A stretch of 64,000 bases of DNA. Source: Alphaproteobacteria bacterium. GTDB taxonomy: Bacteria > Pseudomonadota > Alphaproteobacteria > JASGCL01. Below are positions 10,407-40,272 of the stretch, piece after piece. The stretch is from positions 80,566 to 144,565 of the forward strand of contig CBDHFN010000001.1 of assembly GCA_965262605.1 (NCBI GenBank), written 5' to 3'. Under the pieces are notes generated by a model. The model saw nothing but the letters and a program-made list of their open reading frames with translations, searched no databases and was not told where the DNA came from. Every line of letters starts with the position of its first letter. The first letter of the stretch is position 1. Made by a program: the position numbers and the translations under genes.

Positions 10407-10537
10407 AAATCCCGAATATATTCATTTAATATGCTTAGGATGCCTACTGGCTTGTCTAAAAGCCTTCAAAGATAATTATTGCTATTTATTTGCGTGTAAA
10501 CTTTATAGATTTCATTGAATGAATAAATGCTGAGAGT

Positions 10538-10552
10538 ATCTGCTTAGCAGAT
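10538..10552 (+). terminator. weak hairpin terminator after the kinase gene
   Basis: ATCTGC-tta-GCAGAT followed by TTTTATTCTT. Confidence 0.25.
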
Positions 10553-10635
10553 TTTATTCTTGGTAAATTTCCGATTACACCCTTAAATTCTTTTATAACT
10601 AATTGGGTGCGTTGTAATTTAAATTAAAAATTTTA

Positions 10636-12522
10636 TTAATCTTGGTTGGCTAAAATTGAAAGACAAACTTTTTTAACAATATCATGAAATTTTTGTGTTT
10701 TGTCGACATTATACTCATCGTAAATTTTACGATTTATTTCAAGCCCGTCTTGGTTTAAAAATTCAATCCATTCTTCAATTGTTAAATTATCTTGAATATT
10801 AAATACAGAAAAATCACGCCCAATTCCATAAAATTCAGAATCATTTATTGGTTTATAATGACAAATTCTAAAACTACTCTTGCTTATAATTGATTGACAA
10901 TAGGACAGGCTAAAATTTTGTTTTGAATTATTAATATTTTCAGAATTTGAACTTAGTTCAGTTTTTTCAAATGAATGATTAAAGATTTTGATGATTTCTT
11001 GTTTATTCTTTTCGTTTACTTCATTTAAATTTATATTTTTTATATCTTGTATATCTTTTAAGATGCTAATCATGGCTTTATTTGCGCTTCTTGCCTCTAA
11101 ACCATGAAGATAATATTTAATATGCCATGTAATTATATGCTTGATGGCAAATATTTTGTTGGTTTCATGAAATTTATCATCACCCAAAATAAATAAAAAT
11201 AAGGGCATAAAAAGTCTTGAATTAAAATTTGTAATTAATAATTTGGCAATTTGCATTTGTTCTAAGACTTCTGGAAAAAAATCAATTGAAATTTCATTTT
11301 TGTTAGGATTGACTAAATATTCATAAATTTCGGCATATTTATTTATTTTATCTAACTCTTCAATTGGATTTTTGTTGCCAAGTATTTTACTATATTCAAT
11401 ATAAGTTTGATTGGTTAAAAAATCATTTGGTTTTTTTATTTGTGATAAAACATATTGACGGAAAAATGCTTCAAAATAAGTGGGCTTAGATCTTTCGTTT
11501 GTTTGCATGCGCCAAAATGATAAGCTTAAACCATCGCCATCAAATTGCCATTTCTCATTATAAATAACATTAACATCTTTTTCATCTTTTTGTCCATGAT
11601 TCACTTGTTGTTCAATTTTAAGAAATATCAAATTACGCAATAAATCAGTTTGAGTTAAAGCCTCACGCTTATCATTAAGTGATTCAAAAATTACTTGCGG
11701 GTCGTCATTTTCTTCTAATTCAATTATAACAAATTTCAATTTATTTAACAAAATATTGTATAATTTTTTTATAAATTCAAAGTTTTCTTTTTTTTCTTTT
11801 GCTTTCTTTTCCAAATATTCATTATCGTTTTTATGTTTTAAAAATTCTATCATTTCATTATCATAATTTATTTCAATATTAAATTGCACTTGATTGCGCG
11901 AAATACCTAAATGATAATTACTATCAATTTTTTCTTTAAAAAAAGAAAATGCATTAAGTATTGGCGGCAAATCCAAATATTTATTTTTACCTATTCTTTT
12001 ACTTTTAGTTAATTCTTTTTTGATTAAATTTATTATAAAATTGCCTTTATTGTGAATGACATTAAAATAAATCATCCGTAAATTTTCTCTATCTTTTGCT
12101 GTGGGGTATAATTTAAAATATTCCTCTGGTATTGCTTCGGCTGATGTATATTTTTGAACATCGGGTAAATATTTATTAAATAAATTATCAGAATCAAAAG
12201 AATTACCATCATGTTGATTGAATTGATGATAAAATACATTGAGTAAAATTTGTATCGTTGTTAATCTTTGCTGGCCATCAATCACATCATAAATTTGTGT
12301 GCCATTAATGCTTGAATCAAATCTTTTGATAATGATAGTGCCCATGAAATGATTAATCGCGGAATTATTTCCCTCTAACTCTAAATAATATAAATTCATT
12401 AAATCATTCCAAAATGAATCTAATCGTTCATCACGCCATTGATATAATCGTTGAAATACAGGAATCTTAAATTGCTTTTTGCCATTTAATATAGTTGATA
12501 AATTTTCTGATGATACTCTCAT
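10636..12522 (-). CDS. DUF262 / ParB-like (GmrSD N-terminal-type) domain protein with an unrecognised C-terminal half
   Basis: 628 aa. The N-terminus carries the DUF262 hallmarks FKIPVFQRLYQWRDE and DGQQRLTT. I could not see a DUF1524/His-Me motif in the C-terminal ~350 aa. The start overlaps the upstream stop (TAATG at 12522). The gene is very AT-rich. Confidence 0.7.
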   Translation of the reverse strand: MRVSSENLSTILNGKKQFKIPVFQRLYQWRDERLDSFWNDLMNLYYLELEGNNSAINHFMGTIIIKRFDSSINGTQIYDVIDGQQRLTTIQILLNVFYHQFNQHDGNSFDSDNLFNKYLPDVQKYTSAEAIPEEYFKLYPTAKDRENLRMIYFNVIHNKGNFIINLIKKELTKSKRIGKNKYLDLPPILNAFSFFKEKIDSNYHLGISRNQVQFNIEINYDNEMIEFLKHKNDNEYLEKKAKEKKENFEFIKKLYNILLNKLKFVIIELEENDDPQVIFESLNDKREALTQTDLLRNLIFLKIEQQVNHGQKDEKDVNVIYNEKWQFDGDGLSLSFWRMQTNERSKPTYFEAFFRQYVLSQIKKPNDFLTNQTYIEYSKILGNKNPIEELDKINKYAEIYEYLVNPNKNEISIDFFPEVLEQMQIAKLLITNFNSRLFMPLFLFILGDDKFHETNKIFAIKHIITWHIKYYLHGLEARSANKAMISILKDIQDIKNINLNEVNEKNKQEIIKIFNHSFEKTELSSNSENINNSKQNFSLSYCQSIISKSSFRICHYKPINDSEFYGIGRDFSVFNIQDNLTIEEWIEFLNQDGLEINRKIYDEYNVDKTQKFHDIVKKVCLSILANQD

Positions 12523-13118
12523 TATGCTCTCTCAATCTTAAATGGCAAATTTAATTCGTTGATTCTTGATGGCGATGAAGCAAAAAATTTGAAATTATTC
12601 TTGAAAAAATTATTATAATTGTTTTTATTGTAAAATTCATTAAATTTCACCCATAAATTTGGTCTGATTTTTGAAGTTCCTATAATATCAAAATTTAAAA
12701 TCATGGTTATTTCTTTACAATTTACAATGTCATTATAAAAATTAAATGGTTTCGTGTTGTTGCGATAAAATAATTTTGCATAAATTAAGCTGTTAATTGT
12801 CCCAACATATTTTGGCATTATTTCATTGTGAAAATCTTTCTCGTCCCAAGCTGTTCCATCTGATTTATTTCCATATTGAGATGATTTGTTTTCAATAAGA
12901 AATAATTTATTTGATATTGCATCATAAACCATGACATCACAAATTTTAAGCGAACCAATATATTTTTTATCTGGATGTTTAAAATTAAGGCAATTTTCAT
13001 TTAACCAAAATTTACGAAACGATGAATCTGCATCATCATGAATAATGGCTTTACAATTATTTGATAACATTGTAAACTTAAAACCACCTTCAATTATTTC
13101 TTGTTTAATAAAAGTCAT
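12522..13118 (-). CDS. hypothetical protein, candidate PD-(D/E)xK-fold nuclease
   Basis: ~198 aa counted from Met at 13118; the track ORF starts at 13199 and overlaps the ATPase by 95 nt. The motif string HPDKK...LKICDVMVYD...KLFLIENKSS fits a D...(D/E)-x-K restriction-endonuclease-like core. There is no other recognisable domain. Confidence 0.4.
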   Translation of the reverse strand: MTFIKQEIIEGGFKFTMLSNNCKAIIHDDADSSFRKFWLNENCLNFKHPDKKYIGSLKICDVMVYDAISNKLFLIENKSSQYGNKSDGTAWDEKDFHNEIMPKYVGTINSLIYAKLFYRNNTKPFNFYNDIVNCKEITMILNFDIIGTSKIRPNLWVKFNEFYNKNNYNNFFKNNFKFFASSPSRINELNLPFKIERA

Positions 13119-14112
13119 ATTCTTTACTGCTTTGCCATTTAATATATCTGTCGGATTGGTCATATTCTTCGCTGAATGCTTTTGGAATTCCCATATCATT
13201 GGCTGTTTTGCCTTGTTGGATATTTACTTGATTATCGGTTAATTCAAAATTAAAAAATCTATTATCAAAGCCTTGATATTTTTTATCGCTTAATAAAATT
13301 TCCAATTCACGCAAGAAAAAAGTATTATGCGAAGTTATAAAAATTTGTTTACCTGACAAACTTAAATCACATATATATTGCACAATGATTCTTAAATTTT
13401 TATTATTTATGAATGTTTCTGGTTCATCCCAAATTATATATTCACAATTATCCAATGTCCCATTTGCTTTCAATAATGCAAATGTTGCAATTTTGCGTTC
13501 GCCATCGGAAAGCATGGCAAGGGGTATTTCAATATCATCTCTAATCAGTATAATTTCATTATTTTCATTTAAGGATATTTTTCCATTTAAAGCATCTGAT
13601 TTAAATTGAAGGATTGTTGATTGGTTTGTGCTTTTATTTAAATTTGTAACTAAATCATATCCAATACCATTATCAATTTTGTTATTAATTAAAATATCAA
13701 TAATATTTTTATTCATATAATCTAAATAATCGGTGGTTGGAATAAATAAAACATTTTTTAAATCATTGTCTACATCAATATCACTCAAAACTTCATCTGA
13801 CTCACTTTCATTTTTACTTTTTATAATGGAGATAAAATTCTGATTATCATTAATTTGGAATTTTAGGTTTAGGGTTGAATTTAAACTTGAATGGGATATT
13901 AATTGCGATTCATTTAGAATGCCAAAATTACTTCTAATTAAAGAATCCAATACGACTCCATTTGAATGCGCCTTAATGATTGTATAAATTAATTTTAAAA
14001 CTGAAGTCTTGGCAGTGCCATTCTCACCATAAATTACATTTAAATTTTTACCAAATTCAAATTTCGTTTTTTCAATTTTTAGAAAATTTTCTAAGATTAA
14101 AGATTGAAACAT
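13105..14112 (-). CDS. ABC/SMC-type (AAA_15/AAA_21-like) ATPase
   Basis: 335 aa. Walker A GENGTAKTS, signature-like LSDGERK, Walker B YIIWDEPE, H-loop ITSHN. It is the first gene of the three-gene minus-strand cassette. Confidence 0.7.
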   Translation of the reverse strand: MFQSLILENFLKIEKTKFEFGKNLNVIYGENGTAKTSVLKLIYTIIKAHSNGVVLDSLIRSNFGILNESQLISHSSLNSTLNLKFQINDNQNFISIIKSKNESESDEVLSDIDVDNDLKNVLFIPTTDYLDYMNKNIIDILINNKIDNGIGYDLVTNLNKSTNQSTILQFKSDALNGKISLNENNEIILIRDDIEIPLAMLSDGERKIATFALLKANGTLDNCEYIIWDEPETFINNKNLRIIVQYICDLSLSGKQIFITSHNTFFLRELEILLSDKKYQGFDNRFFNFELTDNQVNIQQGKTANDMGIPKAFSEEYDQSDRYIKWQSSKEYDFY

Positions 14113-14196
14113 AAATTTCCCTTAATTTTTAGTTTGTTATGGTAAGCGAAATTAGCATAAATTTATTTTGTTGTAAAGATTTTTTTTGTGGCTTAT

Positions 14197-16599
14197 TTAA
14201 TTTTTTCGCAAGTTTTCTTTGTCATATAACGCGGTTAAGTGAATTTGTGCGGGGATAATTTGGTTGGCGACAACTAACTGATAATTGCCTGATAATAAAT
14301 AATCATCATTAATGCCCGATTGATTGCGAATATAACCCATGCCGATGGATTGGTTCAGCGTATAACCATAACCCGCCGAACGACAATAACCGACAATTTC
14401 GCCATTGCGTAATATGGTTTCGCGCCCTGATAAGACTGCATCGCCGCTTGCGCTAAGGCTAACTAATTGGCGAGTTTTAGGTTGCGAAGCAATTTTTTCA
14501 ATGGCATCTTTGCCGATATAATCGCGATTTGTGCCTAAATTAATCGGCAAGCCCGCGGCGATGGGGTCATCGGTGCTGGCTATATCACCACCCCAAGCGC
14601 GATAAGCTTTTTCAAGCCGTAAGGATTCAATCGCGCGATAGCCACATATCGCAATATCATGCGCCATTAAAGCGTGAAAAATATCCGCCATATATTCAAT
14701 GGGGATATGTAATTCATAACCAAGCTCACCGACATAGCTTATTCTTAACGCCAAAAGCGATATGTTTTGAATATTTATATATTCCGCCCGTCCATAATTC
14801 GCGCTTAACGGCGCGTTGGCAAGTTTATTTAAGATATTGCGGCTTTGCGGTCCCATAAGCGATAATACGCCATAATTATGGGTAATATCGGTCAATTGCA
14901 ATTGGAATTTTTTCGTGTTTTCGGCAATCCACGCAAAATCATGGACACGAAATCCCGTGCCTGTGATGATATAAAATTCATCTTCGCTGATTTGCGTGAT
15001 GGCTAAATCACATTCAATTCCACCGCGTTGATTTAATAATTGCCGATAATTAATGCGCATATTTTGGTTGCTTATCGGCATTGCTGATAAGAAATTTAAT
15101 GCTTGAAGTGCATTTTGCCCTTTGATAATAAATTTGGCAAAGCTTGATTGGTCAAAAATGCCGACTTGATTGCGCACGGCGTGATGTTCATTGCCGACTA
15201 ATTCAAACCACGGGGCGCGGTTCATGCTGGGAATTTCATAAAAATCATGGGGTTTTTGGGTTGTATTGACATAATTTACCCGTTCCCACCCTAATTTTGA
15301 CCCAAAAACAGCTCCCTTTGATTTTAATTCATGATAAATTGGCGAAGTTAATATATCGCGCGCTGATAGATATTCGTCATTGGGGTAAGCAATCGTATAA
15401 TGTTTTGCGTAAGCTTCGCAAGTTCTTGGCACTAAATATTGCGTGCTTGATTGAATTTCATGGAATCGCCGAATATCCACCGACCATAAATCGCTGGGGC
15501 TTTCGTCATGGGCAACCCAATAGGCAAGGGCTTGCCCCGCACCGCCGCCGCTGGCGATACCAAAGGCATTAAACCCCGTGCCGACAAAATAATTTTGCCA
15601 ATTGGGAGCTTTGCCCAAAATAAAATTACCATCAGGGGTAAAAGATTCCGCGCCGTGCATCATTTTTTTCACGCCAACTTTGGCTAAATCGGGAATTGCT
15701 TGCATGGCGGCGTTTAACATTGGCTCAAAATGATTAAAATCATCATCAAAAAGATGAAATTCATGCTTGGGAATAATGCCCGTTTCATAAACTTGGGGAT
15801 TAGGTTCATACCCGCCAAACACTAAACCGCCTACTTCTTCTTTGAAATAAGTGCGCAAATCAGGGTCGCGAATTGTTGGCGTATTCGGATTTATGCCATT
15901 TATTTTTTCGGTAATGACATATTGATGCTTAATGGCGACAATGGGAATATGCACGCCCGATTTTTCGCCCAATTGTCTGGACCAAATGCCCGCGCAATTG
16001 ACGATTTTTTCGCATCGCACTTCGCCCTTAGTCGTTTTTACGCCAGTAATTCGCCGTTTTTCGCTTAAAATATCCAAAACTTCGCAATTTTCCATGATGG
16101 TAACGCCGTGCATTTTTGCGCCTTTGGCGATTGCCATGGTAATATCGCTGGGGCTGGCTTGCCCATCTGATGCTAAGAATGATGCGCCGACTAAGCCATT
16201 AATATCCAATAACGGAAATAATTTTTGGGCTTGCTTGGGGGTTAAAATATCCATGTCCAAACCAAAGCTTTTGGCGGTAGTTGCGCTGCGGTTAAATTCA
16301 ATCATTCGTTCGTGGTTGCGCGCTAATCTAAGGCAACCCGTCATGCGCCAGCCTGTGTCAAGCCCTGTTTCTTGGGTGATTGATTCATAAAATTCCACGG
16401 AATAGCGCAATAATTGCGTAATCGCCGCCGAAGAGCGCAATTGCCCAACTAAGCCCGCGGCGTGCCAAGTCGTTCCCGAAGTTAATCGCCCTTGTTCCAA
16501 TAAAAGCACGGATTTTTTGTGATTTTTTGCTAAATGATATGCCGTAGAGCAACCGATAATGCCCCCGCCAATTACAATAACATCATATTCTTGGGTCAT
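14197..16599 (-). CDS. dimethylglycine/sarcosine dehydrogenase-family protein (FAD DAO domain fused to GcvT-like aminomethyltransferase domain)
   Basis: 800 aa. The N-terminal dinucleotide fold is YDVIVIGGGIIGCSTAYHLAK. The C-terminal half has a GcvT-type folate-binding architecture. Confidence 0.8.
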   Translation of the reverse strand: MTQEYDVIVIGGGIIGCSTAYHLAKNHKKSVLLLEQGRLTSGTTWHAAGLVGQLRSSAAITQLLRYSVEFYESITQETGLDTGWRMTGCLRLARNHERMIEFNRSATTAKSFGLDMDILTPKQAQKLFPLLDINGLVGASFLASDGQASPSDITMAIAKGAKMHGVTIMENCEVLDILSEKRRITGVKTTKGEVRCEKIVNCAGIWSRQLGEKSGVHIPIVAIKHQYVITEKINGINPNTPTIRDPDLRTYFKEEVGGLVFGGYEPNPQVYETGIIPKHEFHLFDDDFNHFEPMLNAAMQAIPDLAKVGVKKMMHGAESFTPDGNFILGKAPNWQNYFVGTGFNAFGIASGGGAGQALAYWVAHDESPSDLWSVDIRRFHEIQSSTQYLVPRTCEAYAKHYTIAYPNDEYLSARDILTSPIYHELKSKGAVFGSKLGWERVNYVNTTQKPHDFYEIPSMNRAPWFELVGNEHHAVRNQVGIFDQSSFAKFIIKGQNALQALNFLSAMPISNQNMRINYRQLLNQRGGIECDLAITQISEDEFYIITGTGFRVHDFAWIAENTKKFQLQLTDITHNYGVLSLMGPQSRNILNKLANAPLSANYGRAEYINIQNISLLALRISYVGELGYELHIPIEYMADIFHALMAHDIAICGYRAIESLRLEKAYRAWGGDIASTDDPIAAGLPINLGTNRDYIGKDAIEKIASQPKTRQLVSLSASGDAVLSGRETILRNGEIVGYCRSAGYGYTLNQSIGMGYIRNQSGINDDYLLSGNYQLVVANQIIPAQIHLTALYDKENLRKN

Positions 16600-17522
16600 A
16601 ATATCTCCTTTTCATAAGTAATGGCTTCGTTTAAAACTTCGTTCGCGCGCCCGATATAATCAATTTCTGGTTTTGCGATATATTGGCTGGCAACGACAAA
16701 CCAGATGGCTTCACGCAAATAATTCATTAATTTCATGATTTTAAAATTTTGCCAAATTTCGTCATTTAAATTGCCGTCAAAATAATGATTTAATAATTCT
16801 TGTTCTTGGATTGGATTCAAGGGGGCAAAACATGCAAAGCCGGCTAAATCAAAAAATTTTGTGCCAAACCCCGCATATTCCCAATCTATAACCCATAATT
16901 TTTGCCCATCATCAATAAAATTACCCAATAAACAATCATTATGCCCAAAAATAAGATTTTTATCGGTAAATTTTAATTGGCATTTTTGGGCAATTTCTAA
17001 ACATTTTTGCAAGGGAAATTGTTTTGAATATTCAAATTGCGTGCAATATTCATAATAAAGATTAATTGCGTGCCAAACATTAAATTGATGATTTTTATTT
17101 TTTATAAAATCCCCCATATTATGATGAATTTTATATAATATATTCGCAATTTTTGATAAGTTTTCATCGCAATAACTTAAATCAATGGCGGGGGCGGGAA
17201 TATATTCCATAACTATTAAATATACGCCGTTTTCATGGTATTCATAAATAATTTTTGGGGAAAATTCGGCAATATTTGCTTGGCGGCTAATTTCAATTTC
17301 CTTAATTCTGTTTACCCCTAAAACTGGGTAATCTTGGGCGATTCTAAGGATAAATTTTTTGTCGGCGTATTCTAAAATATAATTGCGGGTGCTATAACCA
17401 GAATTAATAATTTGCGCATTTGCAAAACCAAATTTTTCAATAATATGGCTTAAAAAATATTCGTAATTTATTTCTGGCTGAATCATACTGATTATTTTTA
17501 TCAAAAATTTTAAATAATTCAA
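16596..17522 (-). CDS. choline/ethanolamine kinase-family phosphotransferase (APH fold)
   Basis: Brenner motif HNDCLLGNF and IDWEYAG. ATGA overlap with the dehydrogenase gene. The start may be the internal Met at 17486. Confidence 0.7.
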   Translation of the reverse strand: MNYLKFLIKIISMIQPEINYEYFLSHIIEKFGFANAQIINSGYSTRNYILEYADKKFILRIAQDYPVLGVNRIKEIEISRQANIAEFSPKIIYEYHENGVYLIVMEYIPAPAIDLSYCDENLSKIANILYKIHHNMGDFIKNKNHQFNVWHAINLYYEYCTQFEYSKQFPLQKCLEIAQKCQLKFTDKNLIFGHNDCLLGNFIDDGQKLWVIDWEYAGFGTKFFDLAGFACFAPLNPIQEQELLNHYFDGNLNDEIWQNFKIMKLMNYLREAIWFVVASQYIAKPEIDYIGRANEVLNEAITYEKEIL

Positions 17523-24033: not shown

Positions 24034-24194
24034 GTTAGGCGCAATATCATAAAAAAATACTTGACAAAGGCATATTTTTTGCATATTTCGTAACTTTAGG
24101 TATTTTTTGATATTGATTCTAAATTTAAGAATTAAGTTATTTGCTTAATTTCAAGATTTTTTGACAACTCAACATTTAGGTTAAGGTGAATATT

Positions 24195-26243
24195 ATGAAT
24201 GATTATTATTTTTTTGAAAAGTTTACGCCAGATGCACCACAAAGAGCATTTGCCGTAATATGTGAATTTTTATCAGAAACAGAATTAGCAAAAAAATGGT
24301 TTGCAGGAAAATTAAATAAAGTCGGCTATTTTAGGTTTATACGCGCTATTAATCAGAAAATTAATGAAATAAATGCGCATAACAAAAATAAACATGATAA
24401 AAATAATATTGATAATAATGATGAATATTCGCCATTAAATGAAATTAGTTTTTTCACGAATATAACTCCTTCTAACCCCTTAATCGGTGACTTAAATGAA
24501 ATAAAAAATAATAAAAAAACTGGTTTTAAAAAAGAACCTTATGGACATACATCCGAACAAATTGGTTCAGAAGAATATTACATTCACGGTGAATTAAAAT
24601 ACCAACTAATTTATGATAATTATAATAGTATTTTTTATGGTTCGGTTTATTGTGATGACGAGGTGCAAGAATTTTATTGTTTGTCAAAATTATCATTCAA
24701 TGGCTGTTTCTTTTTTAATGATTTTTTATTTAACGAAATAAAAACTTATAATCCAGATACAGCAGAATATTATGAAAAATTATCAGCTGAATATATCAAA
24801 TCATTAGGCACATTAGAGATTAAAAATTCAATTTTTTTCAATCGTTTTGAAATTAATAAATGTAATTTAAAATTTTTTGATTTGAATAATAATTTTTTTC
24901 ACAATAAAGCTAAAATCACCAATAATATTTTCCCCTGTAATGTAATTATTGTGACGCATCCAAATGAAAAATCCCAATTTTTAAATTTCCATAGCACAAA
25001 ATTTGGCGATGAAAAAAAGAAAACGCATAGCAATATGTTTTTTAATATTGCTAATCATGTTGGTATATTCGATCATACGCAATTTAATAATGTAAATTTA
25101 GTTCATTCTGAATTTAAAAAATCTAGTTTTGAAGGCGCAAGTTTTATTAATTGCCGATTAGATTGGGTTAATTTAAGTGGTAATTTCAGTTTTGTTAATT
25201 TCACTAATTCAGAATTTAAAGGAACTAAAATTTTGCCAAATTTAGAAATTAGGTTATTAAAATCTGTTATTTTTTTAATTAATTTGCTTATTGCCTTTAT
25301 TATATATAGGCTTATTTTAAATTTTTCTGAAATTGATTTTGCAAAAAATATTGTTATATCTGTTTTGAATCTCATTACATTTACGATAATTTTATTTATT
25401 TTTATATTTAAATTTAATGAAGATATTTCCACTTATTTTTCAAAAATTCTTAAGTTAAAATTTAAGAAATTTAAAAATCTAGATATGTTTACTGAAAAAT
25501 CAAATTTTAGTAATGCCGATTTTACGGGGGTAAATTATCACAATATTTCATTTGAAAATGCTATAATCACGAATGTTTCCATTGATTTAGAATTAGTGAA
25601 ATTACAAATAAAAAATGCACCACCTGAAATTATTGACGAAATGTTGTTGCAAAATTTTGGCGAAGTGATAAATTTTTGGGATAAAAAGGAAAAAAAGCAT
25701 AATAAGAGCAAAAATATTTATATTGGATATATAATATGTTTAATTTTTGGTTTTGGTTCGGTATTTTGTTATTTAGATTTTGATTTGCTCCCAAATAAAT
25801 TTGATGAACTTAATAAATTAATAACAAAGCTAGAAGAATTTAAAAATACTCTTAATCCTGAAACACTTAAAAATAATCCTATTCTTGAAAAACTTAAAAA
25901 TTATGAAGTTAACATTTTCATTGAATTATTACCATATTTAGCTTCTTCAATTATTTTGGTTTCATTATTTTATTGGTTAATGGGGCATTTAATGAAAAAC
26001 AAAACTGCGCAAAAACATTTGGCGGAGGATGTTGCGCAAAAGAAAATTATTTTAAAATCATTGTTAATGTTGGAACAACGCTCTTTTTTCAATGACGAGA
26101 AAATTGATAATAACAATAAAATCACGGTAAAAAACCCTGTTTATTACGAAATATTATCAAAAGTTTTGGCGCAATCTGCTGATGGTTTAGTAAAAGAAGA
26201 TGGGATTCAAGCACCATTAGAAATATTCACTAAGCTAAAATAA
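24195..26243 (+). CDS. membrane protein with two pentapeptide-repeat blocks
   Basis: Pentapeptide-type runs are present (NLVHSEFKKSSFEGASFINCRLDWVNLSGNFSFVNFTNSEFKG and SNFSNADFTGVNYHNISFENAIITNVS). They are separated and followed by about 4 hydrophobic helices. The ATG at 24195 has AAGG 8 nt upstream; the track uses GTG at 24186. Extremely AT-rich. Confidence 0.55.
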   Translation: MNDYYFFEKFTPDAPQRAFAVICEFLSETELAKKWFAGKLNKVGYFRFIRAINQKINEINAHNKNKHDKNNIDNNDEYSPLNEISFFTNITPSNPLIGDLNEIKNNKKTGFKKEPYGHTSEQIGSEEYYIHGELKYQLIYDNYNSIFYGSVYCDDEVQEFYCLSKLSFNGCFFFNDFLFNEIKTYNPDTAEYYEKLSAEYIKSLGTLEIKNSIFFNRFEINKCNLKFFDLNNNFFHNKAKITNNIFPCNVIIVTHPNEKSQFLNFHSTKFGDEKKKTHSNMFFNIANHVGIFDHTQFNNVNLVHSEFKKSSFEGASFINCRLDWVNLSGNFSFVNFTNSEFKGTKILPNLEIRLLKSVIFLINLLIAFIIYRLILNFSEIDFAKNIVISVLNLITFTIILFIFIFKFNEDISTYFSKILKLKFKKFKNLDMFTEKSNFSNADFTGVNYHNISFENAIITNVSIDLELVKLQIKNAPPEIIDEMLLQNFGEVINFWDKKEKKHNKSKNIYIGYIICLIFGFGSVFCYLDFDLLPNKFDELNKLITKLEEFKNTLNPETLKNNPILEKLKNYEVNIFIELLPYLASSIILVSLFYWLMGHLMKNKTAQKHLAEDVAQKKIILKSLLMLEQRSFFNDEKIDNNNKITVKNPVYYEILSKVLAQSADGLVKEDGIQAPLEIFTKLK

Positions 26244-30901: not shown

Positions 30902-30976
30902 GTGCGTGTAGCTCAGTGGTAGAGCGACTGACTTTTAATCAGTAGGTCGGGGGTTCGATACCCCCCACGCATACCA
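30902..30976 (+). tRNA. tRNA-Lys (anticodon UUU)
   Basis: Hand-folded cloverleaf. Acceptor GTGCGTG/CACGCAT, D stem GCTC/GAGC, anticodon stem ACTGA/TCAGT with loop CT-TTT-AA, T stem GGGGG/CCCCC with loop TTCGATA, encoded CCA. Confidence 0.85.
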
Positions 30977-31036
30977 AACCTTTATGTATTTAATTGTTTG
31001 AAATATATAAGTTAATTTTAAGAAGTTAATTTTTGG

Positions 31037-31111
31037 GGAAGTTAGCTCAGCGGTAGAGCACTGCGTCGACATCGCAGTGGCCACAGGTTCGATCCCTGTA
31101 CTTCCCACCAA
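31037..31111 (+). tRNA. tRNA-Val (anticodon GAC)
   Basis: Hand-folded cloverleaf. Acceptor GGGAAGT/ACTTCCC, D stem GCTC/GAGC, anticodon stem CTGCG/CGCAG with loop TC-GAC-AT, T stem ACAGG/CCTGT with loop TTCGATC, encoded CCA. Confidence 0.85.
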
Positions 31112-34126: not shown

Positions 34127-34233
34127 AATATTTTTGCCTTTCTCTATCAGAGAATTTTTTATAATAAAGCAAGCCGTTTTTAACGAAGTTGAAAAGGGCA
34201 CGCTTACACGTTTCTTTACAGAAACGATAGCAT

Positions 34234-34299
34234 GGCAGGGAAACCCTGCACCCGTTTTATACTGATTGCACGCAATCAGGCAGGGCAAGCCCCGCACCC
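34234..34299 (+). other. candidate oriT of the MobQ relaxase
   Basis: Two imperfect direct repeats, GGCAGGGAAACCCTGCACCC (34234-34253) and GGCAGGGCAAGCCCCGCACCC (34279-34299), flank a perfect 8-bp-arm inverted repeat CTGATTGC-ac-GCAATCAG (34262-34279). The region lies 20-90 nt upstream of the relaxase start. Confidence 0.4.
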
Positions 34300-34321
34300 C
34301 GATAAAAGACAAAAGGAAATT

Positions 34322-35827
34322 ATGGCAATATATCATCTGAATTTGCGTCATGTATCAAGAGCGACAGGTAAAAGCGCCGTGGCAAAATTTAATTATATTT
34401 GCCGTCTTGATAAATACGAAAATGATAATAAACAGGTTGTAGCAATTGGAAGCGCGAATATGCCTAAATGGGTTAATGCTAATGCTAATGCACCGAAGGA
34501 ATTTTGGGTAAATGCTGAAAAATATGAACGGGCAAACGCGCGCTTATGTTCCGAGCTTGAAATTTCATTACCACGAGAATTTACACCCGAACAGAATTTA
34601 AATTTAATCAATGAATTTATTGAGAAAAACCTTAAAGACATGCCTTTGTCTTGGGCAATTCATAACGGCAAGAATGGTGATAATCCGCATATTCATATTA
34701 TATATTCGCACCGCAAGCTTGATGGTATTGACCGCGAAGCAGAATTATTTTTTAAACGAAGCGATATTAAAAATCCAGCAGAATCAGGAACCCCCAAAGC
34801 ACGCGAGCTTATTAGCAAAAATTTTTTATATAATACACGCGAGCAATGGGCGGAAATGACAAATAAGCATTTAGAGAAAGCAGGTATAAACGAACGAATA
34901 ACGCATGAAAGTTTAATCGCGCAAGAACTAAAAAACTTAAAAGGCGCATATCAAAATCCCATGATGGCAACCGAAGCGATTAAGCACGCGGAGACTTTTA
35001 ACAGAATGCCAAAAGGAAGCTTTAAATATAATTATGGCAAGCCATTATATAAAAAAGTTTATGATAATATCAGGAAAGACCGAGTCGTTGCAAAAACTTC
35101 TTTATATAAAACGCTAATGCTTTGCGCCGTGATGGGTTGGCAAAATTATTTGGCGATGCAAATGCTTTTGAAATTAATCGATTTTACAACTGATTGGTCA
35201 ACATCGATAAATAATACGCGTGAAATTTTTTCGCATAGTTTTAAAGCTATACAGGCATTGAAAGAATTAAATGCAAAACCACTAATTTTCAATAAACAAG
35301 CACAAGATAAACCCGAGGAAAAGAGAATTTATATTAAAGTAAATTATGATGAAGTGCATGAAATTACAGAACTTGGGGGAATATGGGACAAAGAGCTTAA
35401 AAAATATTATATTACCGATAAGGATAAACAAGAATTATTTACAAAATTCACCGGACGGGGGATAATAGACATTGACCAATTAAAGCCCGTTCCAAGTAAA
35501 ATAATTCCCACGGGCGAAAGACTTTATATTAATCATACTTTAAAATCTGAATTAGATGAATTAAAGCAAAACGGCGCACAATTTGACGGCGAATTGAAAA
35601 AATGGTTTATAGATAAAAATAAAACTAGTGGCTTTGAGAAATATATAGCGCGTAATGATGAAGCAACCGAGGAACATAAAGATTTTAAACGCGCCCTACA
35701 AAAAGAATTTTTTATTAATAAATTGCAACTGGTAAAACAAGGGCAAGCAATTTTAACTGACGATAAACCAGTTGAAACAAATAAACAACAGAAATTTACT
35801 CAAATTAAGAAAGGAATGAGTTTATGA
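34322..35827 (+). CDS. MobA/MobL (MOBQ-family) relaxase
   Basis: The N-terminus MAIYHLNLRHVSRATGKSAVAKFNYICR and the histidine motif NPHIHIIYSHR are MobA/MobL hallmarks. I set the start at ATG 34322 (AAGGAAA RBS). The C-terminus carries two copies of a ~35-aa module (RIYIKVNYDEVHEITELGGIWDKELKKYYI and RLYINHTLKSELDELKQNGAQFDGELKKWFI). Confidence 0.8.
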   Translation: MAIYHLNLRHVSRATGKSAVAKFNYICRLDKYENDNKQVVAIGSANMPKWVNANANAPKEFWVNAEKYERANARLCSELEISLPREFTPEQNLNLINEFIEKNLKDMPLSWAIHNGKNGDNPHIHIIYSHRKLDGIDREAELFFKRSDIKNPAESGTPKARELISKNFLYNTREQWAEMTNKHLEKAGINERITHESLIAQELKNLKGAYQNPMMATEAIKHAETFNRMPKGSFKYNYGKPLYKKVYDNIRKDRVVAKTSLYKTLMLCAVMGWQNYLAMQMLLKLIDFTTDWSTSINNTREIFSHSFKAIQALKELNAKPLIFNKQAQDKPEEKRIYIKVNYDEVHEITELGGIWDKELKKYYITDKDKQELFTKFTGRGIIDIDQLKPVPSKIIPTGERLYINHTLKSELDELKQNGAQFDGELKKWFIDKNKTSGFEKYIARNDEATEEHKDFKRALQKEFFINKLQLVKQGQAILTDDKPVETNKQQKFTQIKKGMSL

Positions 35828-36345
35828 CCGAAACATCCAAAATAAACGAAGCGCAAATTGAATTAATACTGCAAAATCACAACGATGCGATAAAAGAAAT
35901 TAATGCAATAATTGAAACATACCAAGAAAAATTAGATGGTTTTTCATCCACGATGCAAAATTCAGTTTTAGGATTAGGTTCAATCACAATTTCAATTGGT
36001 GGTTTGAATAAACATTTTAAAGATTATACTGAATATCATGAACACATCATTAAAGAAATGAAAGACATTACACCGAAATTGCAAGAAATTGATAAAACAG
36101 CCAAAGGCATGATTGAATTAAAGAATATTTTAGTGAAATTTCAAGAATTATATAATGGCATTAATGGTTTAACCAAACATATCGATGGCACATATAAAAG
36201 CTTTGAAGTCAAAATCAAAGAATACGAAGCTATGGAAAAGGCTTTGAAATGGACAAAGCTTACGCAATATTTAGTTAGCACGGCAAGCGTAATAACCATT
36301 ATAAGCTTTGTGGTTATTTTTACGGGTTATATTTTGCATAAATAA
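35824..36345 (+). CDS. coiled-coil protein with C-terminal membrane anchor
   Basis: 173 aa with heptad-rich sequence and a terminal TM helix (SVITIISFVVIFTGYIL). ATGA overlap with the relaxase gene. Confidence 0.4.
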   Translation: MTETSKINEAQIELILQNHNDAIKEINAIIETYQEKLDGFSSTMQNSVLGLGSITISIGGLNKHFKDYTEYHEHIIKEMKDITPKLQEIDKTAKGMIELKNILVKFQELYNGINGLTKHIDGTYKSFEVKIKEYEAMEKALKWTKLTQYLVSTASVITIISFVVIFTGYILHK

Positions 36346-36359
36346 GAAAGGATTCTATC

Positions 36360-36695
36360 ATGAAAACAAGCATTTTAAACATCGATGAAAAAAAGCGCTT
36401 TGAGGATTTAAAGCAAAAGCAAAAGAAAATCATCGAAAGCGCATATGCACGCGCATCGCGCGAAGCGAGCATGGCGCGTAAAGCAGATGCACGCCGTAAA
36501 ATTATATTGGGCGCTTTGCTAGTCAAAGCCTTAAATTCGGATAATGCACGCATTAAGTCCAGTGCAACGACAATTTATAATATTATTTTAGAACAGGTCG
36601 AGGAACGCGATAAGCCCCTGTTCAATGGTATAATTGAACCAGAACCAACCAAAGCCGAACCAACACCCCCAGCAACCACGAATAAAGGAGAATAA
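36360..36695 (+). CDS. TraD-like small conjugal-transfer/mobilization accessory protein (tentative)
   Basis: 111 aa. The motif KADARRKIILGALLVKAL resembles the R-x-x-T/A-R-R-K-I-x-L-G-G/A-L core of Ti-plasmid-type TraD proteins. Confidence 0.4.
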   Translation: MKTSILNIDEKKRFEDLKQKQKKIIESAYARASREASMARKADARRKIILGALLVKALNSDNARIKSSATTIYNIILEQVEERDKPLFNGIIEPEPTKAEPTPPATTNKGE

Positions 36696-36697
36696 AA

Positions 36698-37699
36698 ATG
36701 AAAAATATGCCAGAGATAGATGTATATGAACAATGCGGTTTATGTGAAATCGGCGAAAACTTATTTATTAACATGCAGAATTTTATTGCTAAATTAGGAA
36801 TAGCTTTGAAACCAGATTTTTTAATAATTTATGGAAGCACTTTATCATTATTACTAACATATAAAGCCGTGCATTATGTGATAAAAGGCAATGTTGGCGA
36901 TAATTTATTAACGCATTTATTAAAGTATATGTTAGGTGGGATTTGTTTTACATATCTTGATTCTTTAATGATTGAATCGTATAGTTTTCTTATTACTATT
37001 ATGTCGGGAATTGGCATAACCATAATGTCAATTGGCGGTGTTTCAATTGATGGTTCAGGTATGGGGGCATTATTTCAAGCGATGAATGCAAATTATGGCG
37101 AAAGTTTTACCTTAATTCGCAAAATAACGAATGATATTGGTTGGTTAGATGTAGGGGCGTGGATGCTTATATATACCATTTATATACCATTAATTGCTTC
37201 ATATATAATATTCTTTTGCCAAATTATTATTGCCGTATTTACTTTAATGATTTGTGTTATGTGCATGCCATTTGTTATATGTTTATCAATATTTAAAATG
37301 TGGGAACAAACAATTGCGAGCTTGATTAAAACTGCTTTTGGAAGTATTTTAATTGTATTTGTAAGTTCAGCAATTTTTGCATTTATGTCTTTAGTTTTAA
37401 AATCTTACGAACATGTAGCTACGGACATCCACGCAAGCATATCAATATTGAGTCCTAAATTTATATTTCTTTTAGTCGTTCCAAGCGTGTTTTGCGCGCT
37501 GTTATTGCACGGGGTATCTATCGCAAACTCAATTTTCCAAACACAATTAAGCAATTTATCAACGGCGGCGATGGCGGCAGGAATCGCGGCTCCATATGCA
37601 GTTGGTTTTAAAGGCGTAAAAGGGCTAGCTAAAACAGCAGGTGCAGCGGGAACGACGGCCAGTGCAGACTTAGCGCAACAGTACTTGGCAATGCTATGA
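36698..37699 (+). CDS. polytopic membrane protein (about 6-7 TM), weak TrbL/VirB6-like look
   Basis: 333 aa with multiple long hydrophobic helices and an Ala/Gly-rich C-terminal tail. Assigned from topology only. Confidence 0.35.
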   Translation: MKNMPEIDVYEQCGLCEIGENLFINMQNFIAKLGIALKPDFLIIYGSTLSLLLTYKAVHYVIKGNVGDNLLTHLLKYMLGGICFTYLDSLMIESYSFLITIMSGIGITIMSIGGVSIDGSGMGALFQAMNANYGESFTLIRKITNDIGWLDVGAWMLIYTIYIPLIASYIIFFCQIIIAVFTLMICVMCMPFVICLSIFKMWEQTIASLIKTAFGSILIVFVSSAIFAFMSLVLKSYEHVATDIHASISILSPKFIFLLVVPSVFCALLLHGVSIANSIFQTQLSNLSTAAMAAGIAAPYAVGFKGVKGLAKTAGAAGTTASADLAQQYLAML

Positions 37700-37737
37700 A
37701 AAAAATATCAAAGGTTTAGAAGATATAGCAGGTAGAT

Positions 37738-37968
37738 ATGATTAATTCATTAAAAAACAAATTCACAACCAATCGCAAGCATAAAGCCTATGGTATATTC
37801 ATGATCATTATGGGTATATTGAAATTCTTTTATAAAATCTTAAAATCAATATGGTATTATATTAATCCAATTAATATAATTACCAAAGCCATTATTAAGC
37901 CATGGTGCGATTTATACTTATTATTCGAGAATATATTAAAAATATTAATATATTCCCGAAGTGAGTAA
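37738..37968 (+). CDS. small membrane protein, hypothetical
   Basis: 76-aa ORF with one hydrophobic helix (YGIFMIIMGILKFF). Confidence 0.25.
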   Translation: MINSLKNKFTTNRKHKAYGIFMIIMGILKFFYKILKSIWYYINPINIITKAIIKPWCDLYLLFENILKILIYSRSE

Positions 37969-38021
37969 AATTACTGCTCAACGAATTAAATCAAACCAAA
38001 ATATCTTAGTGAAATTGGTAA

Positions 38022-38210
38022 TTAATATAAAATTTTGCGCTTGGAATATGCTGGATAATAATATAAATCAATGCAATATTTGCCCATACAACCGCAGGAA
38101 TCCAGCCGATAAGTGTAATTTGCAATATCAAGCAAAATAAACCAGCAATAGGGCGATCCTATTGTAAAAAATGATAACCATGGCAATACAAAAGTTAATA
38201 ATCGTCTCAT
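38022..38210 (-). pseudogene. frameshifted small membrane-protein gene
   Basis: Frame 1 gives MRRLLTFVLPWLSFFTIG. After a single extra T, the +1 frame gives RPIAGLFCLILQITLIGWIPAAVVWANIALIYIIIQH. Together these make a coherent two-helix small membrane protein, whereas the annotated continuation (SPYCWFILLDIANYTYRLDSCGCMGKYC) looks non-native. Confidence 0.45.
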
Positions 38211-38269
38211 AATTTTCTCCTAATAATAAGCTAAGATATAAAACTATAATAATTACAATTTATTATTTG

Positions 38270-39856
38270 TCAATTAGTTTTTTCAACCTCTATTAGTTCA
38301 TTTGCGATAGTCCAGAATTTTATATAATCAATTTCTTTTACGCGGACAAATTCAATTATTTCCCCCGTGGTTTTTTCATGATCGGGTAAAGCCTTAACTT
38401 TTTCGATAAAACATTTAAAAATTTCAGTGATTTTGCGCGCATAAATGAATTTATCGAAATTGGCATTTAGAATAATGCTTAATTTATGTATAATTGAATT
38501 AAGCACGATTAAATTATTAATTTTATAGCTTAATAATTTTGTATCGTGATTCAGCTGTATTTTTAATTGATTTTGCTTTATTGATAATTCATTAAATCGT
38601 TCAACAAGCCCAGACTTATCAATTCCTTTTTCCATAAAATCCATCAAATTTATTCGCTTATTATTAATATTTGTTATATCATTATTGAGTTTTTTGATAT
38701 TTGCATCGATGCCATCATAATAATTTTTAACGGCATAATAAAATTCATAATTATCAAGCATGGTGCAATTGATATGATTTAGCACCATGTCGTAAATATT
38801 TTTTGCATTTGTTCCACGGTTATTTTTACACCTGCCTATATATTTTGCGTTTTTACAAACATAAAAACTTTTTGAATGCAAAACCTTTAATGAACCGCAC
38901 TCACAAAATATTAAACTTGTTAATGGTTTTTTATGGTATGTTTTGGATTTCGGCGGGATAATATTATATTTATTTTGATGTAATTTATCTTGCACCCTGT
39001 TAAATAAAGCCTTGTCAATAATCGCCAGTTCGGGCAAATTCACTGATACCCATTCGGCTTCAGGTTTAAGAATATTTTTTGACCGACCCGTCAAAGGATC
39101 GGTTATTAATCGTTTTTTGTTATACACATAAACGCCACTATACAAGGTATTGCTTAATAAGCCATCTAATCGCTTATAGCTACCTAATATCGTATTCGTT
39201 CGCCATATATGCCCCGATGGAGACGGCACGCCTTCTTGATTTAATTTATGGCATATTTGGGACACTGGAATATTATTATCAAATTCAATAAATATCTGTT
39301 TTACAATTTTGGCTTTTTCATGATTGATTTTGCGAAACCCGCGCTCAATCTTACTGCCCTCAACCCTTATATCATTATCATAACCGTAGCATATCCCCGC
39401 GGGAATGCGCCCCTCATGCGCCCGTGCTAATTTGGCGCGTAATGAATGCGCTGAAATATTATCTATCATAAGCGCGTTAGAAGTGCCTTTAAAGCCTATA
39501 TGCAATTTTGTTATTAAGCCATCTTGCACCGAGTAGATTTTAACTTGATTATATTCGCATATATCATAAAACCTTGCCATAAATGCCATGTTCCGACTTA
39601 ACCTATCGATTGACTCGCACAGGACAATTTGATATTTATTCGTATATAAATTTGCTATTAAATCATTTACGCCCGGGCGCGTTCCATCTGTCCCAGATAT
39701 TCCATTATCATAATATTTATCCGCAATATTAAAGCTAAAATGCTTTTTTGCATATTCCATGCAAAGCCTGAATTGGTCGTCAGTGCTTTTTTTATTTTGC
39801 ATATCGGTTGAATACCTTGCATAAATAGCAATGTCATAATTTCTTTTCATGCACAT
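38270..39856 (-). CDS. large serine recombinase
   Basis: The N-terminal resolvase catalytic domain is IAIYARYSTDMQ...SIDRLSR. A recombinase domain and a Cys-rich zinc-ribbon segment (CECGS...CKN...C) follow, then a C-terminal coiled coil. 528 aa. Confidence 0.85.
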   Translation of the reverse strand: MCMKRNYDIAIYARYSTDMQNKKSTDDQFRLCMEYAKKHFSFNIADKYYDNGISGTDGTRPGVNDLIANLYTNKYQIVLCESIDRLSRNMAFMARFYDICEYNQVKIYSVQDGLITKLHIGFKGTSNALMIDNISAHSLRAKLARAHEGRIPAGICYGYDNDIRVEGSKIERGFRKINHEKAKIVKQIFIEFDNNIPVSQICHKLNQEGVPSPSGHIWRTNTILGSYKRLDGLLSNTLYSGVYVYNKKRLITDPLTGRSKNILKPEAEWVSVNLPELAIIDKALFNRVQDKLHQNKYNIIPPKSKTYHKKPLTSLIFCECGSLKVLHSKSFYVCKNAKYIGRCKNNRGTNAKNIYDMVLNHINCTMLDNYEFYYAVKNYYDGIDANIKKLNNDITNINNKRINLMDFMEKGIDKSGLVERFNELSIKQNQLKIQLNHDTKLLSYKINNLIVLNSIIHKLSIILNANFDKFIYARKITEIFKCFIEKVKALPDHEKTTGEIIEFVRVKEIDYIKFWTIANELIEVEKTN

Positions 39857-39898
39857 TTTATATATAATTCCAAATCAAATATCAATAATTTTATATTA

Positions 39899-39921
39899 CA
39901 AGTAAAAAAATTTTTTACTTG
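39899..39921. repeat. 23-nt palindrome upstream of the serine recombinase gene
   Basis: CAAGTAAAAAA-a-TTTTTTACTTG, 43 nt upstream of the recombinase start. The half-site CAAGTAAAAAAA recurs at 43349-43360, 33 nt upstream of the second recombinase gene. Confidence 0.5.
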
Positions 39922-39986
39922 ATTCCATAATAAAAATAATATATCTATTAGGGTATCTTTGGAATAAAATTAGAAATAAAAGGATT

Positions 39987-39998
39987 TACTTCCCACCA
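39987..39998 (+). repeat. direct repeat of the tRNA-Val 3' end (att-like)
   Basis: TACTTCCCACCA is identical to 31100-31111. Confidence 0.5.
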
Positions 39999-40113
39999 TC
40001 TAAACTCGTGATTCATTATAACCTATGGCGGAAAGTAAGTCAACACAATAATTTTGTGAAGGGGTGTTTTTACGATTATTTATTCAAAATCGTTTAATTC
40101 ATAAAAATTTAAA

Positions 40114-40177
40114 ATAAAAAACCCAAGATTGGCGTCTTGGGCTTTTCTGGAATGCTATAAGCAACCCCGTAATTAAT
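40114..40177 (-). ncRNA. candidate ~60-nt small RNA
   Basis: It lies downstream of a consensus minus-strand promoter. It has no ATG-initiated ORF. It ends in the hairpin CCCAAGA-cgccaa-TCTTGGG (40122-40141) followed by TTTTTTATTTT on the minus strand. It is transcribed divergently from the Rep-like gene at 40273. Confidence 0.3.
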
Positions 40178-40183
40178 AAGGGT

Positions 40184-40211
40184 ATTATAGCTAATGGGGA
40201 AGTGTTGTCAA
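40184..40211 (-). promoter_or_regulatory. consensus sigma70 promoter (minus strand)
   Basis: The reverse complement reads TTGACA-acacttccccattagc-TATAAT, with both hexamers perfect and a 16-nt spacer. Confidence 0.5.
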
Positions 40212-40272
40212 GTGTTATTTAATATTTTGCAATATTTTTTTATTACGATTGCCTTTCTCTTAGGAGAATATA

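Follow-up and report, generated by a model that had tools for sequence, protein, structure and literature searches.

At positions 10,636 to 14,112 of a 64,000-nucleotide stretch of an alphaproteobacterial genome (contig CBDHFN010000001.1 of GenBank assembly GCA_965262605.1, positions 80,566 to 144,565 of the forward strand; the whole stretch is hereafter called the window), an ATPase gene, a small candidate nuclease gene and a DUF262 gene (genes 1, 2 and 3) are packed into a compact AT-rich cassette. The question raised by this locus is whether the three genes constitute a single undescribed defence system or an assembly of parts that are already known. We favour the latter with moderate confidence: the cassette is probably a horizontally acquired operon in which a divergent HEC-02 pair is combined with a GmrSD-lineage protein devoid of its nuclease, that is, two known kinds of module. 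This reading is based on the homology established for each gene, the loss of specifically the DUF1524 domain from gene 3, the operon structure, the foreign composition of the segment and the uniqueness of the triad. A preliminary description of the locus had proposed a defence cassette that could not be placed in a named system. The proposal of a role in defence is supported, and such a role may be presumed for the cassette. The placement, in turn, can now be made, with genes 1 and 2 representing a divergent HEC-02 and gene 3 belonging to the GmrSD/HEC-06/Orf5/mREase_IV lineage.

The three genes follow the order ATPase-nuclease-DUF262, all on the minus strand, and their overlapping open reading frames (ORFs) and characteristic motifs were found exactly as first described (Table 1). 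The stop codon of gene 1 (13105–13107) overlaps the start of gene 2 by 14 nucleotides if the latter begins at 13118, and by 59 or 95 nucleotides if one of its other starts is used. Gene 2 and gene 3 share a TAATG at 12522, a 1-nucleotide overlap of stop and start.

Gene 1, judged by its motifs and profile matches, is an ATP-binding cassette (ABC)/SMC-type ATPase of the HEC-02 ATPase family. HEC-02 ('Hma-embedded candidate 02', included in PADLOC-DB v2) consists of an ABC ATPase and a NERD-type PD-(D/E)xK protein, and both genes were experimentally shown to be needed for phage defence (Payne et al., 10.1101/2024.01.29.577857, Fig. S3). The motif set of gene 1 is complete (GENGTAKTS, residues 29–37; LSDGERK, 201–207; YIIWDEPE, 225–232; TSHN, 260–263), and Pfam matches above cut-off were obtained with AAA_21, SMC_N and AAA_15, in agreement with the initial view of this gene as an ABC-type ATPase. 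The PADLOC HEC-02 ATPase model PDLC04146 was matched with an E-value of 2.6e-45, residues 1–326 aligning to positions 1–342 of the 344-position profile, and a second HEC-02 ATPase model, PDLC04213, was matched over its full length (E 4e-42). Matches to the ATPases AriA, GajA, PtuA and AbiLi in PADLOC were only partial (1e-14 to 1e-6), and that to NsnB (E 1.2e-11) was confined to residues 220–317; the HEC-02 match is approximately 34 orders of magnitude better. A word-indexed protein search returned a single relative (P0003, 32% identity), and 160 loci (80 genomic, 80 metagenomic) encoding full-length relatives of gene 1 at 23–40% identity were recovered by pattern scans.

Two observations on this family should be mentioned. 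In this HEC-02 subtype the PADLOC-DB labels are inverted relative to the paper, the 344-position ATPase model PDLC04146 being named 'HEC-02B' and the 170-position small-subunit model PDLC04145 'HEC-02A'. In addition, the closest relative of gene 1, P0003 (locus L008), possesses an extra N-terminal domain of approximately 125 residues (1–125) that has no Pfam match and contains the string '...PMLVYEVKN...', which resembles the E-x-K motif of PD-(D/E)xK nucleases. P0003 may thus be a nuclease-ATPase fusion variant of HEC-02. It is also followed by an overlapping gene whose product starts with MTVLQDENKRLSFIFAEE..., resembling the N-terminus of the small subunit.

Gene 2 was far more difficult to place. 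Its 225-residue ORF contains CDVMVYD (residues 87–93) and LFLIENK (99–105), from which a PD-(D/E)xK nuclease had originally been suspected. No match was found in Pfam, PADLOC (E <= 1), NCBIfam, PHROGs or PDB sequences, no homolog in a word-indexed search of 5.8 billion proteins, and an exhaustive phmmer search of 1.84 billion representatives returned only the protein itself and one low-complexity match. Since gene 2 had no homologs by sequence, the positional partners of gene 1 relatives were used instead. An ORF of 165–200 residues directly follows the ATPase gene in approximately 66 of the 80 genomic loci, usually with a 4-nucleotide overlap, and 65 of these 66 ORFs form one family. Of the 80 metagenomic loci, 56 likewise contain a small subunit recognized by the profile of this family. 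These partners match the HEC-02 small-subunit models of PADLOC, with E-values down to 3.5e-84. Against Pfam, members of the family gave only sub-threshold matches, nearly all to PD-(D/E)xK groups (NERD, pPIWI_RE_REase, TnsA-like and DUF234), and the family profile had no meaningful match among PDB sequences.

Residues 35–168 of gene 2 scored 17.3–18 bits against the profile of the 65 partners, and none of 5,000 shuffled sequences exceeded 10.3 bits. Among 224 reading-frame segments of the window, gene 2 was the top scorer on this profile, the next segment reaching 5.1 bits; hhalign comparison with the partner family gave an E-value of 3.4e-5 and a probability of 72%. The alignment places the family pattern 'VDf...lwLiEvKd' over 'CDVMVYD...LFLIENKS' of gene 2. 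From M28 onward the alignment with the family spans the whole of gene 2, and the family N-terminus falls on this residue, so translation from the ATG at 13118 (198 residues) is likely. In the 198-residue numbering, five residues show no variation among 16 sequences (F15, D61, E76, K78 and K103). The D...E-x-K string had been picked correctly. On these grounds gene 2 belongs, as far as sequence can tell, to the HEC-02 small-subunit (NERD-like PD-(D/E)xK) family, of which it is a highly diverged representative, and its product would be expected to adopt the nuclease fold of that family.

With respect to layout, genes 1 and 2 match HEC-02, in which an ABC ATPase gene of approximately 350 codons is followed by an overlapping NERD-like PD-(D/E)xK gene of approximately 170–200 codons. 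They differ in their extreme divergence (gene 1 being only 23–40% identical to its relatives) and in lying outside any Hma system, no Hma core being present at this locus. A further difference is the third gene, translationally coupled by its arrangement and encoding a DUF262 protein, a neighbour found in none of the 160 related loci.

Gene 3, in turn, can be assigned from its sequence to the GmrSD/HEC-06/Orf5/mREase_IV lineage of type IV restriction. The ParB-like DUF262 domain was detected with PF03235 (E 9e-30, residues 8–300), with intact motifs I (FQRLYQW, 23–29), II (DGQQR, 82–86, within DGQQRLTT, 82–89) and III (FESLN, 279–283); the invariant columns of the family are retained in this domain, which additionally carries an insertion of about 45 residues at positions ~205–250 relative to GmrSD-family enzymes. 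We identified 2,272 homologs of gene 3, nearly all of them approximately 620 residues long with both PF03235 and PF07510, the closest of them being matched over their whole length by the Orf5, mREase_IV and HEC-06 models. In PADLOC, gene 3 itself matched 23 families at E <= 1, all of which were Orf5, HEC-06, mREase_IV or SspE. An AlphaFold2 model built with a 66-sequence alignment was confident for residues 1–520, with a predicted local distance difference test (pLDDT) score mostly of 80–96 in the DUF262 domain and 70–94 in the helical domain that follows. The best Foldseek hits of the model were DndI (9jfl; E 2e-9, template modelling score 0.47) and SspE (6jiv/7drs; ~1e-9), and BrxU was hit weakly; at the sequence level, the match to SspE had an E-value of 0.32. 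By profile, model and fold search, the middle domain corresponds to the DNA-binding domain called ParBDB in GmrSD, SspE and NsnA.

What gene 3 lacks is the nuclease. A profile of 65 homologs aligned residues 1–504 to positions 1–437 of 608 with a score of 244 bits and then stopped. There was no Pfam match to PF07510 (GmrSD_C), and when the remaining 124 residues were compared with the DUF1524 part of the profile they scored −0.2 bits, a value that shuffled sequences exceed (reaching 10), with an hhalign probability of 0.6%. The initial description of a DUF262 protein without a recognizable DUF1524 was therefore accurate. DUF1524 is kept in 114 of the 120 best homologs of gene 3, and held-out homologs with a comparable score for the N-terminal and middle parts (247–290 bits) still scored 90–117 bits in the DUF1524 part, so that the loss is specific rather than a result of general divergence. 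A frameshifted or split DUF1524 encoded elsewhere was considered and ruled out, as no DUF1524-like segment was found in any frame of the window. In the AlphaFold2 model, residues 522–585 had pLDDT values of 33–49, and the beta-beta-alpha element was not predicted. A Pfam RNase A match in the tail (21.0 and 19.4 bits, below the cut-off of 23.1) was rejected as compositional; it spans the model incompletely, misses the regions of the catalytic His/Lys/His and falls in a stretch rich in Ser, Asn and Lys.

Compared with the GmrSD family (GmrSD, BrxU/HEC-05, HEC-06, Orf5 and mREase_IV), gene 3 thus shares the DUF262 domain with QRxxxW, DGQQR and FxxxN motifs and the helical ParBDB-like domain, but is distinguished by the absence of a detectable DUF1524 His-Me/HNH nuclease ((D/E)H...N...N), the domain that makes these proteins restriction enzymes, and by not being a stand-alone gene, coupled as it is to the nuclease gene upstream of it. 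The DUF1524 nickase domain of the phosphorothioate-sensing effectors SspE and DndI, which gene 3 resembles in fold, is likewise absent. These effectors are associated with ssp or dnd phosphorothioation genes; the immediate neighbours of the cassette are metabolic genes.

The three-gene combination was seen at this locus only, and the triad is not conserved. Searches with phmmer and two profile hidden Markov models (HMMs) found no DUF262 gene within approximately 5–6 kb in any of the 160 loci with gene 1 relatives, and no HEC-02 pair was present in the 8 contexts examined for gene 3 relatives. The preliminary description had counted an absence of the triad from other genomes as evidence against its proposal, and these counts show such an absence. 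Relatives of gene 3 occur as stand-alone genes in varied defence islands, together with an Hma-like helicase/methylase and HEC-01, CBASS, type III restriction-modification, Wadjet or AbiE. Its two closest relatives (27–28% identity) each immediately follow an ABC-ATPase module, and in one case the resulting ATPase-DUF4276-GmrSD array has the shape of the cassette. In four JGI metagenomic loci (L001–L004; e.g., L001, 1–7848), a PLD-SNF2 helicase, a type IIG methyltransferase, HEC-01 and a GmrSD-like enzyme form a conserved array followed by an integrase. HEC-01 is represented there by an ABC ATPase and a DUF4276/Toprim protein, and the whole is an Hma-type island with two embedded modules not more than 18 nucleotides apart. 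These arrays resemble the cassette in their tightly packed, single-strand succession of an ABC ATPase (374 residues), a small effector (199 residues) and a GmrSD-like protein (615 residues; the closest relative of gene 3, 27–28%). They differ in that the pair is HEC-01 and not HEC-02, that the GmrSD-like protein keeps its DUF1524, that an 18-nucleotide gap takes the place of the overlap and that genes for a PLD-SNF2 helicase and a type IIG methyltransferase precede the array. The arrays prompted the idea that gene 2 is a DUF4276/Toprim protein and gene 1 of HEC-01 type; both were rejected, the former on a BLASTP E-value of 54 and the latter because only weak local similarity was found.

The composition of the cassette is also that of foreign DNA. 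The AT-rich island is bordered by a sugar-kinase gene (plus strand, ending at 10406) and a dimethylglycine-dehydrogenase-like gene (minus strand, stop at 14197). In 400-nucleotide windows, the guanine plus cytosine (GC) content is 0.22–0.29 over 10.4–14.2 kb compared with 0.38–0.46 on either side, so the AT-richness first reported holds qualitatively, with the figures given for it (17–25% versus 40–58%) slightly exaggerated at both ends. GC content is uniform at 0.25 in each of the three genes, with 0.18–0.20 at third codon positions (GC3), and is 0.42 with a GC3 of approximately 0.40 in the flanking kinase, aminoacylase and dehydrogenase genes. Low GC is not peculiar to the cassette, further AT-rich patches being present at 24–26, 33–44 and 48–55 kb of the window. 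No flanking direct repeats, adjacent tRNA or adjacent recombinase were found beside the cassette as marks of insertion. The nearest tRNAs are at ~31 kb and the nearest recombinases at 38–43 kb (window coordinates), which bears out the earlier remark that no recombinase adjoins the block.

If the cassette is an acquired HEC-02 pair with a GmrSD-lineage companion, the gene 1 ATPase would act as infection sensor and regulator, by analogy with PARIS, Septu and Gabija, and would license the NERD-like nuclease of gene 2 (D61/E76/K78) to cut nucleic acid. Gene 3 would descend from a single-protein type IV enzyme of the GmrSD/HEC-06 type whose DUF1524 has degenerated and, with its nuclease degenerated, would on its own probably bind DNA and hydrolyse nucleoside triphosphates (NTPs) without cleaving DNA. 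It would share a transcript with genes 1 and 2, its translation being coupled to that of gene 2.

Several points weigh against this reading. The experimental support for HEC-02 comes from one representative (10.1101/2024.01.29.577857). Gene 2 lies below the detection level of the PADLOC small-subunit HMM and, being under all PADLOC, Pfam and phmmer thresholds, would not lead PADLOC to call HEC-02 here; its single-sequence AlphaFold2 model (pLDDT 34) was unusable for fold search. A promoter and terminator scan was uninformative in such AT-rich DNA (33 sites versus 32 expected), and none could be confidently assigned. The tail of gene 3 has remained an open frame of 124 codons (P ~4e-6) with a coding-like order of GC content at the three codon positions (GC1>GC2>GC3), which speaks against simple decay; the tail could have a function or contain a cryptic nuclease. 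Finally, the 1-nucleotide overlap and the hairpin at the junction of genes 2 and 3, described below, would suit one integrated system better than two independent neighbours.

An integrated system, to which these last points lead, is the main alternative, and we regard it as rather unlikely. Gene 3 would sense modified or foreign DNA and signal to the gene 1 ATPase, which would engage the gene 2 nuclease, a logic convergent with that of Menshen in which the loss of DUF1524 reflects the recruitment of gene 3 as a sensor. Menshen (NsnABC; Millman et al. 2022; Li et al., NAR 2025, PMC12065111) is a three-gene system. The proposed sensor, NsnA, is a DUF262 plus ParBDB protein without DUF1524; the proposed transducer, NsnB, is an ABC ATPase that ends in a DUF3696 tail and has atypical motifs (Walker B EN, GxG); and NsnC combines an N-terminal inPIN with a C-terminal effector (BECR, Toprim, PLD and others), PD-(D/E)xK not being among the 15 effector families (PMC12065111). 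The three-gene logic, put forward as a candidate undescribed system, therefore already has a name, although the cassette is not a member of that system. Its likeness to Menshen is one of architecture only, i.e. a DUF262 plus ParBDB-like protein without DUF1524, an ABC ATPase and a separate nuclease in one operon. Gene 3 matched no NsnA model in PADLOC at E <= 1; gene 1 has no detected DUF3696 and has a canonical WDEPE Walker B and LSDGE signature; gene 2 matched no NsnC model and is a single-domain HEC-02 small subunit without inPIN; the gene order is ATPase-nuclease-DUF262 and not A-B-C, and the triad is not conserved elsewhere.

Part of the case for integration comes from the gene junctions. 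A predicted RNA hairpin with a 12-bp stem encloses the stop codon of gene 2, a GAGAGAG ribosome-binding site and the ATG of gene 3. Its minimum free energy is −16.9 kcal/mol (z = −2.6), and 3 of 200 shuffled sequences folded equally well. Because the 5' arm is part of the final codons of gene 2, the stem would be opened by ribosomes completing that gene, and together with the overlap this sequence layout, a classical one, implies translational coupling of gene 3 to gene 2, which would fix their stoichiometry. The arms belong to a 15-nucleotide motif, TTTGCCATTTAAKAT, that is present in three copies in the 64-kb window, all at junctions of the cassette (0.26 copies expected; none of 100 shuffles reached three). 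The third copy (13131–13145, minus strand) lies a short distance before the start of gene 2, where genes 1 and 2 meet. 'ILNGK' is encoded by both same-strand copies, one close to the N-terminus of gene 3 and the other in the 5' extension of gene 2, and the inverted copy, separated from them by 42 and 581 nucleotides, respectively, could form a stem with either. This arrangement hints at alternative RNA structures at the cassette junctions. Integration would also agree with the NsnA-type architecture of gene 3, with its intact DUF262 catalytic motifs, with a nuclease loss that was specific and left the tail open, and with the position of its two closest relatives directly downstream of ABC-ATPase modules. 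What speaks against it is that the combination is a single instance, with no DUF262 neighbour in the 160 loci of gene 1 relatives, and that HEC-06, a relative of gene 3, works stand-alone and HEC-02 as two genes (10.1101/2024.01.29.577857). The few other relatives of gene 3 that lack DUF1524 have no ATPase neighbour; two that appear complete (P0034 and P0109) were considered as a recurrent ATPase-linked subtype and rejected for this reason.

Gene 3 might instead still be an autonomous GmrSD-type enzyme whose His-Me nuclease is hidden by AT-driven drift, in which case two complete and independent systems would lie side by side. This idea, which we consider improbable, draws on the length of the protein (628 residues, typical of the family), on the maintenance of the tail as an ORF and on a MAFFT alignment that puts ICH555YKP (H555/P558), DN579LT and IN597 on invariant columns of the family. 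A collinear pattern of this kind occurred in 13 of 200,000 shuffles, in a test that was post hoc. The remnant placed by MAFFT had no support from HMMER or hhalign and was rejected as a real domain. The tail may be a dead DUF1524 vestige; if so, the acidic residue before the His has become Cys, and the Asn-bearing segment 'LLTxxLNxSxSN' has been deleted. In BrxU (D+H) and HEC-06 (E471A/H472A), defence was lost when the acidic residue and the His were jointly replaced by alanine (10.1101/2024.01.29.577857). The Cys in place of the acidic residue, the missing Asn-bearing segment, the contrast between −0.2 bits here and 90–117 bits in equally divergent homologs, and the low-confidence model without a beta-beta-alpha element all argue against a functional nuclease, and gene 3 is probably catalytically inactive in this respect.

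The possibility of a decaying, non-functional remnant, for instance what had been embedded in an Hma-type island whose helicase and methylase are gone, with drift toward AT under mutational pressure, is very unlikely in our view. Such decay would account for the lost nuclease domain of gene 3, for the ORFan status of gene 2 in sequence searches, for the single relative (32%) of gene 1 in the word-indexed search and for the presence of HEC-02 and HEC-06 types, usually found within Hma islands, at a place with no Hma core. However, a stop codon is expected every ~10.5 codons at the composition of the cassette, and open frames of 198 and 628 codons would arise by chance with P ~3e-9 and ~8e-28; all three long ORFs are intact, the catalytic motifs of the ATPase, PD-(D/E)xK and DUF262 proteins are all preserved, and so are the overlapping starts and stops. 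Membership in Menshen proper or in another named ABC-ATPase system (PARIS, Gabija, Septu, AbiL or OLD) is scarcely credible and largely refuted, for beyond the coarse inventory shared with Menshen and the weak, partial matches of gene 1 to NsnB, AriA, GajA, PtuA and AbiLi, the best match of gene 1 is full-length HEC-02, genes 2 and 3 fall outside the Nsn families, the gene order differs and no TOPRIM, DUF4435 or HNH partner or fusion is present in genes 1–3.

The acquired two-module operon that we prefer lies in a window with other AT-rich segments. One of them (GC 0.23–0.30) contains a complete type I Zorya system (47916–55469, plus strand), whose PADLOC E-values span 9e-35 (ZorC) to 2.6e-271 (ZorD). 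Another stretch (34232–43316) carries mobile-element genes, including a relaxase and two paralogous large serine recombinases, with two tRNA genes just upstream, and may be an integrated mobilisable element. Because the window holds both a complete Zorya I and mobile-element genes in addition to the cassette, the genome collects AT-rich defence islands. The most AT-rich kilobases of the window (GC 0.22–0.26) encode a 685-residue pentapeptide-repeat protein (24186–26243, plus strand) that has no PADLOC match. Beside the dimethylglycine-dehydrogenase-like gene, a choline/ethanolamine-kinase-like gene (16596–17522, minus strand) has a GC content of 0.30 and a GC3 of 0.28, intermediate between backbone and islands; the protein collection has no entry with its exact sequence, a sign that its start may have been annotated differently. 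Every window protein that was looked up formed a singleton cluster (at 90% identity, among ~15 billion proteins), and the source genome thus has no close sequenced relatives.

Table 1. Features of the cassette and of other segments of the 64,000-nucleotide window (positions are those of the window)
Feature	Position	Strand	Description	Basis
AT-rich island	10420-14196	none	GC ~0.25	Composition and boundary sequence
Gene 1	13105-14112	minus	335 residues	ORF call
Gene 1 key sites			Walker A G29-S37; signature LSDGE 201-205; Walker B WDEPE 228-232; H-loop H262	
Gene 2	12522-13118	minus	Probably 198 residues; alternative starts 13163, 13199	
Gene 2, maximal ORF	12522-13199	minus	225 residues; internal ATGs 13163, 13118	
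Gene 2 candidate catalytic residues			D61, E76, K78, K103 (D88, E103, K105, K130 in the 225-residue ORF)	
Gene 3	10636-12522	minus	628 residues	ORF call
Gene 3, residues 1-300	11623-12522	minus	ParB-like DUF262/GmrSD_N NTPase-sensor domain	PF03235
Gene 3, residues 301-504	11011-11622	minus	Alpha-helical middle domain, 'ParBDB' equivalent	Family HMM, AlphaFold2, Foldseek
Gene 3, residues 505-628 and stop	10636-11010	minus	Tail in place of DUF1524 His-Me nuclease	
Predicted RNA hairpin	12478-12549 (arms 12535-12549, 12478-12492)	minus	12-bp stem	Inverted repeat and folding
TTTGCCATTTAAKAT copies	12478-12492, 12535-12549, 13131-13145		Two same-strand, one inverted	
tRNA-Lys and tRNA-Val	30902-31110		Just upstream of mobile-element stretch	
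MobA/MobL relaxase	34232-35827		With DUF5710	
Large serine recombinase, copy 1	38270-39856	minus	Paralogue of copy 2	
Large serine recombinase, copy 2	41733-43316	minus	Paralogue of copy 1	
ZorA	47916-49649	plus		PADLOC
ZorB	49655-50365	plus		PADLOC
ZorC	50356-51927	plus	EH signature	PADLOC, E 9e-35
ZorD	51900-55469	plus	SNF2 helicase and Mrr nuclease	PADLOC, E 2.6e-271

The locus illustrates how AT-driven divergence can hide a system of the HEC-02 type from PADLOC, Pfam and exhaustive phmmer searches, gene 2 having been recovered only by a profile of positional partners. Since a divergent HEC-02 is missed by standard tools, defence inventories of AT-rich or fast-evolving lineages are underestimates. 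If the three proteins do not cooperate, the cassette is a commonplace defence islet of two modules in which one gene is crippled. If they do, the locus would show Menshen-like three-component systems arising by recombination of modules. With gene 3 recruited as a sensor, it would be a natural 'intermediate' between single-protein type IV enzymes and ABC-ATPase/nuclease pairs, and would offer a tractable case for studying the communication between a DUF262 sensor and an ABC ATPase.

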